DNA of 62,867 nucleotides, counting the filler, from Octopus bimaculoides (Eukaryota), in assembly GCF_001194135.2 (NCBI RefSeq). It is 6 parts of 6 records of this genome, joined end to end, with 100 filler letters (N's around TTAATTAATTAA, not from the genome) between each part and the next. Parts side by side here need not be neighbours in the genome. Positions count along the whole stretch, not along the records: positions 1 to 20,510 come from NC_068986.1; positions 20,611 to 32,900 come from NC_068997.1; positions 33,001 to 41,843 come from NC_068989.1; positions 41,944 to 60,015 come from NC_068983.1; 2 more parts are not named here. One strand, given 5' to 3'. The position numbers and the translations under genes are program-made. The notes under the pieces are model-generated. The model worked only from the letters and a program-made list of their open reading frames with translations. It searched no databases and was not told where the DNA came from. This document shows, in pieces, positions 7,009 to 55,469 of this stretch (positions within the stretch are counted from its first letter, which is position 1; every line of letters begins with the position of its first letter).

Positions 7009-7114
7009 CCATTACGGCTGATCTTACCAATCGGTTTCGCGCAAGGAATATAATGGAACGTTAGGTAACAATCCGAGTATATAACTTTACGCTCATCAGA
7101 GTTAGCCGATATGG
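7009..7114 (-). ncRNA. Type I hammerhead ribozyme-like motif (HHR-1)
   Basis: Minus strand: CUGAUGA (7099-7093), stem II closing gcg/cgc around a long imperfect arm, GAAA (7038-7035), stem III ACC-gauu-GGU, GUA triplet (7027-7025), stem I cu/ag plus cggcu/agccg. Confidence 0.65.
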
Positions 7115-7142
7115 AAGGGAATATGTACTTATATAAACATGT

Positions 7143-7190
7143 ATGGATGGATGGATGGATGGATGGATGGATGGATGGATGGATGGATGT
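7143..7190. repeat. (GGAT)n microsatellite
   Basis: Direct tetranucleotide array. Confidence 0.95.
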
Positions 7191-7269
7191 GCTGTATGGT
7201 GTTAAATGCAAAGCGGGAAATGAAGTTGAGGCTGTTTTTATGGGTAGGGGGTAGTACTTATGGAGACAT

Positions 7270-7775
7270 AAGTTGCTTCGAACAAACAAGGCTAACAGCC
7301 CTGACAATACCAATTGCATTTAATCAATGCAGCCCACAACTTACTCTTATTCTCACCAAGCTCTTTAATCTTTCATATCCCAGCACGCAGAAACGTCTAC
7401 ATCCTAGCATGTAGAAACGTTTCAGTATGTTCAATTCAAAAGAAAGGTAATCCCGCTGACCCAACTGTTGCTCCATTGCCTGGATTTCTAACCTCTCCAA
7501 GGTAATGGAAACAGGCATCAACAATGGCATCCTCTGTTATCTTGAATCTCTTTCAACACCCCACCCTCTCTCTTTCTCTCTTTCCATCTCTTCAGTGGAC
7601 ACCAATGCGTTTTTCTGCAGAGCCAGATACACTGAATGCCTATTTTTTTAATCAATGAACATATTTCTTACGTTATTTGATCAGTGAGCTATCGCTTTAC
7701 AGAAGTTCAGAGAAAGCCACGTCGTTACTCTGAACATCAGCAAAACGACCATGTCCAGCATGCAAACCTGTCATG
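7270..7775 (+). mobile_element. Decayed LINE reverse-transcriptase fragment (CR1/L2/Jockey group)
   Basis: Frameshifted peptides [45 protein letters not shown] and ALQKFRESHVVTLNISK match LINE pre-RT and RT domains 0-3. Confidence 0.7.
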
Positions 7776-51160: not shown

Positions 51161-54100
51161 TCTATATATATAGATATATATATATACATGTGTCTATATA
51201 TATGTATAGATATATGTGTNNNNNNNNNNNNNNNNNNNNNNNNNNNNNNNNNNNNNNNNNNNNNNNNNNNNNNNNNNNNNNNNNNNNNNNNNNNNNNNNN
51301 NNNNNNNNNNNNNNNNNNNNNNNNNNNNNNNNNNNNNNNNNNNNNNNNNNNNNNNNNNNNNNNNNNNNNNNNNNNNNNNNNNNNNNNNNNNNNNNNNNNN
51401 NNNNNNNNNNNNNNNNNNNNNNNNNNNNNNNNNNNNNNNNNNNNNNNNNNNNNNNNNNNNNNNNNNNNNNNNNNNNNNNNNNNNNNNNNNNNNNNNNNNN
51501 NNNNNNNNNNNNNNNNNNNNNNNNNNNNNNNNNNNNNNNNNNNNNNNNNNNNNNNNNNNNNNNNNNNNNNNNNNNNNNNNNNNNNNNNNNNNNNNNNNNN
51601 NNNNNNNNNNNNNNNNNNNNNNNNNNNNNNNNNNNNNNNNNNNNNNNNNNNNNNNNNNNNNNNNNNNNNNNNNNNNNNNNNNNNNNNNTATATATATATA
51701 TATATATATATGCATGTATATATATATCTATATCTATAAAGCTGAGTTTGTGAGTGTAAAGTCAATTTTTTAAAAGTTGTGTTGCATTCTATTGAGAGAC
51801 TTGCACTTAAAATTCCTGCGTTTTTAATCAAAACTTTTTAGTTACTATGCTGACAACACTACCTACTTATCTATCTTTCACACACTTTCTCACTCACATA
51901 CACACACATATACACAAACATACTGTATTTTCTTTCAATAACAACTTTTCTCCTCCCCTTTTTCTGAAGATACATTATGATGTATATTTTGATTCCTTCC
52001 CTTCTTTCCCCCTCTCTCTAATAGATGTTATAACGGACAGACAGACGGTGATCCGCTTCTCTTTTATAATACAAGATTATATCATGTCAATAGCTTTAGT
52101 ATTTTACTTGTAGTTTTAAAAAAATCAAACATCGTCCACAATGTTCATCAGTATATTTTGTTTTTGCTACTGGTTGATATGATAGTAAGTTTGTTACTTT
52201 GTAGGTGCCATTGAATAGTTCAAGGAATTACTTTAATAATTAACTCATCATACACTGTTGATAAAATGTTGATGTAGTTTATTTGAATCGAAAGGAAGAA
52301 GCTGTCTCATTATAGAATATTCAGTCACTGGTAACAGATTTGCTGAAAAATATCCTGTGTGCGGTGAAGTGAACCAATTTCAAGTGTGATCTGAAATTAC
52401 TTCAAAGGCAGTGATGCAATAGAACTAAATGTAAATATTTTGGTTTTGCATGATTGAATAATCGTTTCAGATTTAATCCCACGACTTTATTGAATGTTAC
52501 TCTGTCAATTAAATAGCATGTTGCCACGAAATTTATAGTGGATGATATGACCAAATTTTATTCGCTGTTGTTCTTATTGATCACCACTCTTAGTTCGAAA
52601 ATTATATTCATCGTCATTCACTGACAGTAATTTTCGATATAACTTTTTGCAATTACTCTTCATGTTGGCTTGGATGTTACTAAAGTTGCGAAACTGTAAT
52701 TTCCATGATTTGAATAAGCTCGTAAAGTAACTTTTTTTTTTCTTTCACAAAGACCGCAAATAAGCGGATTTTGCCAGAACAGTTAAATTTTCAAATCACA
52801 TCTAAAACAGAACTTATTTTTATAATCATTAGGCAAATCAGTTTAGCTGTGCCAGGTATAACTTATACATCGTAAATAACTATCAGCTACTAAGCTTTTA
52901 CAGATATTAATAGTTTATAGCTATACACACATACACACATACACACACACGCACGCACGCACACGCACACACACAAACACACAAACACGCACGCATGCAC
53001 ACACACACAGACACACACGAACACACACAAACACGCACACATGCACACACATGCATACATATATATATATATATGTGTGTGTGTGTGTGTGTGTGTATGT
53101 ATGTATATATATATGTATATATACATATATGTGTCTGTGTGTATATATATATATATNNNNNNNNNNNNNNNNNNNNNNNNNNNNNNNNNNNNNNNNNNAC
53201 CATAGAAGCACCCCTAGAGTAAAATCTTTATCTAGATAAAATAACATATGTCGATGAAAAGCCAGAATGCGGTTTTTCGTCCGGAAAATAAATTGCTGTG
53301 TTTGTGTGTATGTGTCATTCAAAGTATGTCATTTTCTTATTATTATTTTCCATCTGCTACATTAATTTACTTACTTTATTTCTGATGTAATATTAAGAAT
53401 ATAGTAAAAGTTCAAATTCATTTGAAGCCTAGTATTATGAAGTTTATTTATGAGAAACATTCTTAACTCCTTCATCTATATCAGATGTCTGGTAAATTTA
53501 TGGCTATTGATACATAGCCTGTTATATTTTTTTTTCTCCTGGAAACTTCATTGCCAGCTAATTTTACGTCAAGAGTTAATACATCCTCGGTAAATTCATC
53601 ATATTTTTTATCTGCAGAATAAATACATCACTCCAAATAATTTAAAAGTTTAATTCACTGAGTGAATATGTAGCATTTTATTTGCAATAAAAAAGGGACT
53701 CAAACACTAAAAAAGAGTTATTTATATGAAATTTTCTCAAAATATTTAAGCAAAAATTTTCAAAATAGTATCACAAGAATATACAAAAAAAATAAAATAA
53801 TGCAATTTTAAATTGAAAGAAGCATTTCAAAGAGTGATGCCTCTTAACTATTCCGGCACTTGGCGATTTTGATATTTATTGACGATATGCTGAATTTTCG
53901 TTGCACTATATTTAAATTTGTTTTTGTGATGTGAAATCTCTACACATTTTTAAGATTTGCAGCACGTAGGATAGATTATTTTGTTTTCGAATTTTTTTTC
54001 CTTTATTAATGAAATACGACGTATTTACTCTGCAATAAAACTTGAAATAATGTTTAGCCATGTTGTTACTCTACGGATAAAAAGCTTGACGATGAGTTTA

Positions 54101-54415
54101 CTAACAATGTATTGGTTCGCTATGTAAGTATCTTGCAAAGAAACTGTCAGTCGGTGAAATAACAGGAGTTTGAATTAAACGACCACGAATTACCAGTGGG
54201 GAATTTAAAACAATATATTTATAGTGGCCTTCTGTATTAATCTTCAATGTTAAACATAGGATGACGGTTTAAATCTTGGATCAAGTCATCTATATTACAG
54301 TTTCTTTTTTCTATTCCATCAACAGCAGATGCATGTTTCGATGTCCTTGTATTTCGTCCAAATTTCGTTGGTTCCGCATATGGACAAATATATTTATGAT
54401 ATTAGGGAATCCAAC

Positions 54416-54615
54416 TACGGCGAGGTGGCAGAATCGTTAGTAAAATGCTTAACGGCATTTCGTCCATCTTTATGTTCTGATTTCAAAATTCTGCCGGGGT
54501 TGATTTTGCCTTTCATCTTTTCGGAGTCGATGAAACGAGTGCCAGTTGAACACTGGAGTGATTACATCGATTCGCTCCTTTCCACCAAAATTTCAGGCAT
54601 TGTGCCTATAGCAGA
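54416..54615 (+). mobile_element. SINE family B
   Basis: ggcgaggtggcagaatcgttag...gatttcaaaattctgccg...tgtgcctatagcagaaaggg tail. Confidence 0.85.
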
Positions 54616-55370
54616 AAGGGTTATTAGTGAAGTTGGGTTAATGCTATGTTCTACAGGGAAAATGAAATTATGTAGAGGAATAAAGAGAGATATCTTCGTC
54701 CTTAAAGCTGTGCTTTTTTAGTAATATTTAGATGATTTTCACTGAAGTTCTTTCAGACTAGTGAAGTTTTGTTTGTTACAGATGAAACCAAAATTTGTAG
54801 TGCCCTAGAATTACTGTACCACGTAATCAATCACCAGACAAAAAAGATGCTGACGAACATCAACATATGTTTAAAGCTTGATTCAGAATGAAGTCTAACA
54901 TTTTCCTATCTTGAATTTATGAATGTGCTATTATAGCAATCATCGTGGTCGAACTCACAATGCCCTGAAGGTACAGACTTAATATTTCTCACCAGCTAAA
55001 AAACACAAATATAAGGACATAGTCAATGTGGTCCTTGTCAAGGGATGGCACGCGATCTCATTTAATGTTGAAATATTCGCGGTGGATGAATTTTCAAACT
55101 TTGATCGGATTTATAGGATTACCAACACGTCTAACAGCAGGATGAGTTTTGCCGAGGTCTTGTATACATTTAGAAAAAGATATACCAATTTTTATACAAA
55201 AAAGTGTTTAACACTTGAAATTTCAACAAAGGATGAAAGGAATGAACTTTACAAATTTCAGAAGGATTAATTTTACAATTTATAGGAAGGACAGTATATA
55301 TTTTATTATTATTTTTAATTTTTTAAAATTTCTAATGTTTTAATTAATATTATATATATACCATTGGTTC

Positions 55371-55469
55371 TTAATTAATCTCCGAAGAGCGGAATTACTG
55401 ATAGTAAGCTGATCTTTTGGTCACTTAGTGATTATAGTAATATCCACGAAACGATCGTCAGATGTTTAA
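55371..55469 (+). ncRNA. Type I hammerhead ribozyme-like motif (HHR-3), core U4>C
   Basis: CCGAAGA (55382-55388), long stem II gcgga-attact/agtaatatccac, GAAA (55448-55451), palindromic stem III acgatcgt, GUC triplet, stem I atct/agat plus ttaa/ttaa. Confidence 0.6.

Follow-up and report, generated by a model that had tools for sequence, protein, structure and literature searches.

We analysed a 62,867-nt stretch of Octopus bimaculoides DNA (hereafter the window) in which a preliminary description had proposed five hammerhead ribozyme motifs. Two of the five are real hammerhead sequences (A, 7009-7112, and B, 31094-31134, both on the minus strand), one is a decayed hammerhead (C, 55371-55469, plus strand) and two are not hammerheads. 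A and B, which have intact cores, and the decayed C are type I hammerheads and probably leftovers of the 3' ends, or pseudo-long terminal repeats (pseudo-LTRs), of Penelope-like elements (PLEs). B is the clearest case: it is a member of a multi-copy family whose conserved core occurs in three organisms, and we hold its PLE origin with good confidence. For A and C, judged by analogy, the same origin would be somewhat favoured.

Three hammerheads and their chance expectation

The window is AT-rich animal DNA; 9,490 of its 62,867 bases (15%) are N, a smaller part than the 'much of it' first given, and N and simple repeats together make up 32%. Chance expectation was estimated from 2,490 dinucleotide shuffles (100-nt blocks, both strands). 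A strict descriptor, requiring an exact core, a 4-bp helix II, a palindromic helix III and an NUH cleavage site, matched twice (A and B) against a mean of 0.017 in the shuffles, and a count of two was reached in 2/2,490 of them; the excess over dinucleotide-shuffled sequence on which the proposal had been made to depend was thus found, in the window, for A and B. Without the palindrome rule the two matches stood against 0.13 (18/2,490). The one-mismatch descriptor, which admits C, is weak (2 observed versus 0.31; 94/2,490) and, without its palindrome and helix I rules, gave background (19 versus 16.6). The length limits of the descriptors were chosen after the motifs had been seen, so that the shuffle values are somewhat generous. 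Because of these results we consider A and B to be real and C to be plausible but weak alone. A minimal-hammerhead scan returned no exact-core match and a single 1-mismatch match, at 14527 (minus strand).

Hammerhead A, delimited by descriptor, shuffles and folding to 6990-7135 (minus strand), has an intact CUGAUGA core (7099-7093), a 54-nt helix II rod (7092-7039; z -3.3, with 0/200 shuffles as good), an intact GAAA (7038-7035) and, as helix III, the palindrome accgattggt (7035-7026; 3 bp with a GAUU loop). The predicted cut is between 7025 and 7024, at a GUA site. Helix I adjoins the core and is about 33 bp long, with one mismatch and one bulge; the duplex formed by the flanks has a predicted energy of -20.7 kcal/mol, matched by 1/2,000 shuffles (162/5,000 when alignment score is used instead). 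The ViennaRNA centroid of 6990-7135 (minus strand) is the hammerhead fold. No Rfam hammerhead model matched A. Being predicted to fold correctly, A may still cut if transcribed.

Hammerhead B has an intact CUGAUGA core (31134-31128), a 4-bp helix II (31127-31112, from the descriptor) and a helix III of 5-6 bp formed by the perfect 14-nt palindrome actgaccggtcagt (31095-31108), with a predicted cut after 31094, at a GUA site. Helix I is missing beside the core in the window copy, where N2.1 and N1.1 are each an A, and the minimum free energy structure buries the core in a rod (-29.3 versus -24.9 kcal/mol for the constrained hammerhead). Its only Rfam match is to Hammerhead_3 (20.1 bits, E 0.089, cut-off 48.5). 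The reading frame that starts at the AUG within the core meets a stop after 12 codons in this copy.

Hammerhead C was delimited by the one-mismatch descriptor, Rfam and folding. Its core reads CCGAAGA (55382-55388; U4C) and not CUGANGA; it is followed by a 59-nt helix II rod (z -2.9) with a C.A mismatch at the second pair, and further on by the 8-nt palindrome acgatcgt as helix III (55451-55458), with a predicted cut after 55459, at a GUC site. Helix I has 4 bp and adjoins the core. The match to Rfam Hammerhead_1 (RF00163) runs over the whole model, a 57-nt helix II being treated as an insertion, and scores 15 bits (E 0.61, cut-off 34). U4 matters for hammerhead catalysis, and C has likely lost activity through the change in its core. 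C is preceded on its own strand by a 95-codon open frame (54983-55270, plus strand) that stops about 100 bp upstream; this frame matched nothing in Pfam or in the protein search, had no useful Atlas match and did not match the restriction-like endonuclease (RLE) protein P0019.

The type I architecture that these motifs had been said to share is therefore borne out in part. The palindromes are where they had been placed, each directly 3' of GAA and followed by a site with a non-G H17 (GUA in A and B, GUC in C); helix II, helix III with A15.1-U16.1 and the NUH site occur in all three, with the C.A mismatch in helix II of C, and the cores of A and B are intact. The core of C, on the other hand, is decayed and the window copy of B lacks helix I. 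As to the label 'dimer-type', helix III is self-complementary in all three (predicted self-duplex -12.4, -25.9 and -10.0 kcal/mol for A, B and C), but a monomer hairpin is also predicted for B (-2.8 kcal/mol) and, marginally, for A (-0.9 kcal/mol), and none for C. The palindromes would permit dimers in all three motifs, but only C would need one; the label fits C best and does not describe a shared requirement. The window contains neither a second nor a tandem copy of any of the three.

That the motifs are unrelated in sequence, as had been stated, is unproven for A and C, which align with 46 of 109 columns identical, a score reached in 10/300 shuffles. Beyond the core the two are alike in a helix II that opens with GCG and forms a rod of 54-59 nt, in a helix III centred on CGAUYG and in AGAU after the cut site. 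On these resemblances A and C may be distant members of one class.

The two weaker relics of the preliminary description do not stand, and neither is among the printed matches of any hammerhead descriptor. The first (49635-49688) is a real hairpin (z -3.2), but its two half-motifs, CUGACGA and GAAA, lie on opposite strands, and it is not a hammerhead as it stands. The second (51038-51073, plus strand) is a chance resemblance: it has neither an intact core nor GAAA, and its fold is no better than chance (z +0.2).

The inverted repeat around hammerhead B and its family

B forms the apex of an inverted repeat of about 330 bp (30954-31281), the arms of which are complementary at 116/146 aligned positions. 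The arm downstream of the cut (30954-31093, minus strand) measures 140 nt from the cut site to its end, where the depth of related sequences drops (at about 30953); it has no tail and is likely the 3' end of a PLE pseudo-LTR. The second arm (31135-31281, plus strand), defined by arm pairing and by the majority letters of the relatives, would be an inverted copy of the same 3' end that reaches the hammerhead core. Next to it is a one-sided extension of up to 47 bp (31282-31328, plus strand), which has no partner in the left arm and is likely the 'tail' of a PLE.

Four of the 24 listed sequencing runs were aligned with the B stretch at 80% likeness: three DNA runs, one from each of three organisms (labelled A, B and C, independently of the hammerheads), and the RNA run X21. 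Words of the stretch were found in twenty listed runs; one organism accounts for 12 of these, and four others, with small shares, for the remaining 8; this word search listed no RNA run, which says nothing on expression. Metagenome pattern scans for the family gave 0 matches. The three DNA runs contain 1,532, 1,812 and 1,910 contigs that match the stretch, and 68, 81 and 85 of them, respectively, cover the core at 31116. Clustering into families with a conserved core, which the preliminary description had predicted, is in this way established for B. Summed depth at the core is 6,845-7,200, versus 14-16 for the locus-matching contigs in X1, or about 450- to 500-fold in all three runs, summed depth not being the same as copy number. 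The core is 18-20 times deeper than the adjoining inner arms, as expected if it is conserved, and divergence of the window copy could add to this contrast. A contig of organism C that covers 30940-31243 may represent the same locus. A 50-bp piece of the arm (31213-31264) is about 17 times deeper than the core in all three runs (125,000 in X1) and has loose ends with a different interior; this depth reflects a far larger related subfamily.

The relatives also bear on how the two arms arose. Majority changes were tabulated from 40 of 148 letter rows, with 31116 and the rows lacking a DNA majority left aside. Of the 33 changes, 32 fall at paired columns, where 25 restore pairing, 6 break it and 1 is neutral. 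Since the letters of the relatives restore pairing, both arms derive from one sequence, which does not mean that every copy is palindromic. Same-strand joints from arm to arm, drawn from 15 of the 98 joints listed and from a further table, lie at different points: 31007 to 31216, 31017 to 31219, 31035 to 31208, 31046 to 31182, 31137 to 31226, 31138 to 31203 and 31142 to 31214. These seven joints show that there are other foldbacks, with variable junctions, among the relatives. Behind 31290, 40, 39 and 52 contigs run on into the extension, the X1 consensus agreeing with the window at 24/30 letters, whereas in others (23, 30 and 31 contigs) consensus agreement is lost near the point where the left arm ends; we read these two kinds of loose end as tailed and untailed ends of the family.

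The relatives differ from the window copy in the ribozyme itself. At 31116, G is replaced by A in 92-95% of their depth, which gives helix II a fifth pair. One deep contig in each of the runs X13 and X15 shows 6 extra bases behind the cut site which, judged by inspection, pair with 5/6 of the window bases before the core. Because they would restore helix I, the window copy probably derives from a normal type I hammerhead by the deletion of 6 bases immediately behind the cut site, a change that is likely to have cost it its activity. Two details of the same contigs are unfavourable to this reconstruction: they end at 31132, so that the 5' strand of helix I had to be taken from the window, and their pair 15.2-16.2 is a C.A mismatch. 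The reading of B as type III, suggested by a GUC four bases before the core and by the 20.1 bits of Hammerhead_3, was rejected, as the four linker bases cannot form a helix I and the relatives restore that of type I. A second hammerhead on the opposite strand was likewise discarded (core with 2 mismatches, no downstream GAAA).

In X21, of which about 6% was read (12.9 million records), 104 reads match B, 54 of them first and 50 second mates, on both strands. None reaches 99% identity and their ends do not pile up, although the reads are few and the library may not keep small or circular RNA. Relatives of B are transcribed at a low level, and the window locus itself was not seen in X21.

A second foldback lies close to B (30606-30753). 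Its arms are 90% complementary, it contains no hammerhead, and its end resembles that of B (10/300 shuffles); it is possibly an apex-deleted sister family.

Penelope-like elements and competing explanations

According to Cervera and de la Pena 2014 (PMC4209133), animal genomes contain type I hammerheads by the thousand. These are heterogeneous and for the most part solitary, have a short palindromic helix III, are tied to PLE pseudo-LTRs and show weak activity as dimers. Craig et al. 2021 (PMC8557442) give as hallmarks of PLE insertions an adjacent inverted, 5'-truncated copy and a 30-40-bp tail at one end, both also supported by PMC11167929, and their File S2 places PLE hammerheads, with a palindromic helix III of 3-4 bp, about 100-200 nt from the 3' end. 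An octopus example is Hydra-1_oBim, a PLE of O. bimaculoides with a palindromic helix III hammerhead at 2403 of 2507, about 100 nt from its 3' end (PMC8557442). The study of PAc (PMC11167929) traced the tail to two reverse transcription start sites at a stem-loop, showed priming on both target strands, and found the PLE hammerhead to be protein-assisted and dispensable for insertion in vitro.

Elements such as Hydra-1_oBim and Penelope-13_HM share with our motifs the type I topology, the palindromic helix III and an occurrence as many heterogeneous families per genome, mostly in solitary copies; B shares in addition the distance of 100-200 nt from the 3' end, the inverted truncated copy and, probably, the one-sided tail. 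As a dispersed multi-copy family with a hammerhead so placed, an inverted 5'-truncated copy and a variable junction, B fits a PLE 3' end. Its inversion would stem from a PLE protein that primed reverse transcription on each of the two strands of an AT-rich target. The product would be a hammerhead-bearing 3' end standing head-to-head with an inverted, 5'-truncated copy, with the tail retained on one arm. The hammerhead of the parent element would cut a tandem precursor RNA, aided by the PLE protein or by pairing of its palindromic helix III with another copy. Independently, a frameshifted fragment of a PLE GIY-YIG endonuclease is found at 62615-62865 (minus strand; 18 relatives at E ≤ 0.001, 63-65% identity by tblastn), one relative of which, P0002, has RVT_1 plus a GIY-YIG domain at its C terminus. 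PLEs are therefore present in this genome; the fragment is not linked to A, B or C.

Several observations weigh against a PLE origin or weaken its details. There is no PLE open reading frame beside A, B or C, tblastn with the 18 proteins (one PLE lineage) having matched only 62537-62865, and no autonomous partner for B was found; lacking a linked frame with reverse transcriptase and GIY-YIG domains, the three are filed as likely non-coding remnants and not as autonomous PLEs. None of them reaches an Rfam gathering cut-off. Short motifs of B were not found in the available part of the PMC8557442 supplement, where line breaks can hide matches, and the helix II of A and C, at 54-59 nt, exceeds in length that of the animal PLE hammerheads tabulated there. 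The extension, of up to 47 bp, is slightly longer than the tail described; the untailed ends depend on a consensus of low agreement (0.51-0.54); the joints are a limited sample; and to the neutral change in the arms must be added the six that break pairing, most of them contributed by a single deep contig in X13 and another in X15. Further differences from known PLE pseudo-LTR hammerheads are the longer helix III of B and the reach of its inverted copy, which extends to helix I so that the ribozyme caps a hairpin of about 145 bp. Naiad_Ovul ('HHR_half_core') was compared by eye and resembles none of the three.

A bolder reading, which we regard as rather unlikely, makes B a self-contained non-autonomous foldback. 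[quoted passage not shown] In three of the listed joints (31137, 31138 and 31142) the departure from the hammerhead arm is 3-8 bases upstream of the core.

Two other explanations are improbable, and equally so. In the first, B is a MITE or foldback DNA transposon with long terminal inverted repeats, amplified by cut-and-paste, which captured the hammerhead as a passenger at its centre. Such elements share with B the long inverted arms, the high copy number and the internal-deletion forms, and the derivation of both arms from one consensus, the depth of the arm relative to the core, the many apex-deleted relatives and the similar end of the second foldback would all suit them. B is nevertheless asymmetric, its termini do not match on account of the one-sided extension, no target-site duplication was seen by eye, and the conserved ribozyme core at the centre is where depth exceeds that of the inner arms, even if divergence of the window copy could contribute.

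In the second, A, B and C are monomers of non-LTR retrozymes, non-autonomous units of 170-400 nt that are transcribed, self-cleaved and circularised, B being a rod-like circle. The metazoan retrozymes of Cervera and de la Pena 2020 (PMC7229834, available in part), amphibian dimer-active forms included, likewise have type I hammerheads, and the sizes are in range; C, with a short helix III and a palindromic tetraloop, resembles the dimer-active forms. Retrozymes have also been argued to derive from PLE pseudo-LTRs (bioRxiv 10.64898/2026.07.22.740005, available in part), so that this explanation overlaps with the PLE origin preferred here. The window, however, has no tandem repeats of 150-450 bp; RNA matching B in X21 is neither abundant nor piled at ends and comes from both strands, with the reservation already made on the library; and the G.U-type mismatches between the arms show no strand bias (6 versus 8). 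Lastly, that the motifs are chance matches in AT-rich, repeat-rich DNA is very improbable: it is true for relic 2, probably for relic 1, and C alone is not clearly above chance under limits set post hoc, but A and B exceed the shuffles, the centroid fold of A is the hammerhead, and for B chance is already refuted by a core present in dozens of contigs from three organisms with a majority letter that improves a helix.

Other elements and relation to known systems

An RLE fragment of a long interspersed nuclear element (LINE) lies 700 bp from B (31786-32293, plus strand). It is a broken C-terminal domain, 63-71% identical to P0019, and presumably of the Dong/R4 type, to go by its motifs; we judged it unlinked to B because it is on the other strand and across a microsatellite. 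At 61585-62865, a LINE reverse transcriptase fragment (plus strand; Pfam RVT_1) abuts the GIY-YIG fragment (minus strand) at about 62660-62700, and one of the two was probably inserted into the other. The window also holds a Tc1/mariner transposase fragment (2620-3030, minus strand; HTH_Tnp_Tc3_2, E 2.6e-14), an isolated tRNA-Ser(GCT) among microsatellites (60347-60428, plus strand; 64.8 bits) and more than 10 copies of a two-part repeat with a central microsatellite that resembles a short interspersed nuclear element (e.g. 9938-10816, 12908-13467 and 50528-50916). Both this repeat and the microsatellites are octopus-like in appearance. Two identical 300-bp copies (18726-19025 and 19177-19476) flank a 97-N gap and are probably an assembly artefact. 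Among the matches listed from the whole-window Rfam scan (150 of 355), only the tRNA and microsatellite-driven miRNA matches appear.

In the available parts of the genome papers, 235 Hammerhead_1 loci are counted in squid (PMC6962438), and PLEs make up 6.83% of the O. vulgaris genome in 190 families, with no mention of ribozymes there (PMC13282606); PMC6765202, PMC8969392 and PMC13725137 were also compared, as far as available. The preliminary description had inferred several ribozyme-bearing repeat families across this genome. The multi-copy state of B, with its conserved core in three organisms, supports this in part, whereas heterogeneous hammerhead families are an already published signature of PLEs and not an unrecognised system, to which A, B and C add members. 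What may be mildly new are the 54-59-nt helix II rods of A and C, below Rfam cut-offs, and the possible origin of B by fold-back on helix I. In the literature covered, which leaves out subscription papers, Repbase and Dfam, where the B family may be listed under another name, we found no paper that deals with these families, with a foldback repeat capped by a hammerhead or with a helix II of 54-59 nt in animal type I hammerheads.

To conclude, the motifs add unannotated hammerhead-bearing repeat families in the octopus lineage, for which we found no dedicated ribozyme survey, and they serve as a warning that repeats which look like MITEs can be PLE ends. If fold-back on helix I were true, the PLE hammerhead, the role of which is unsettled, would gain a footprint in the structure of insertions that is testable by alignment alone.

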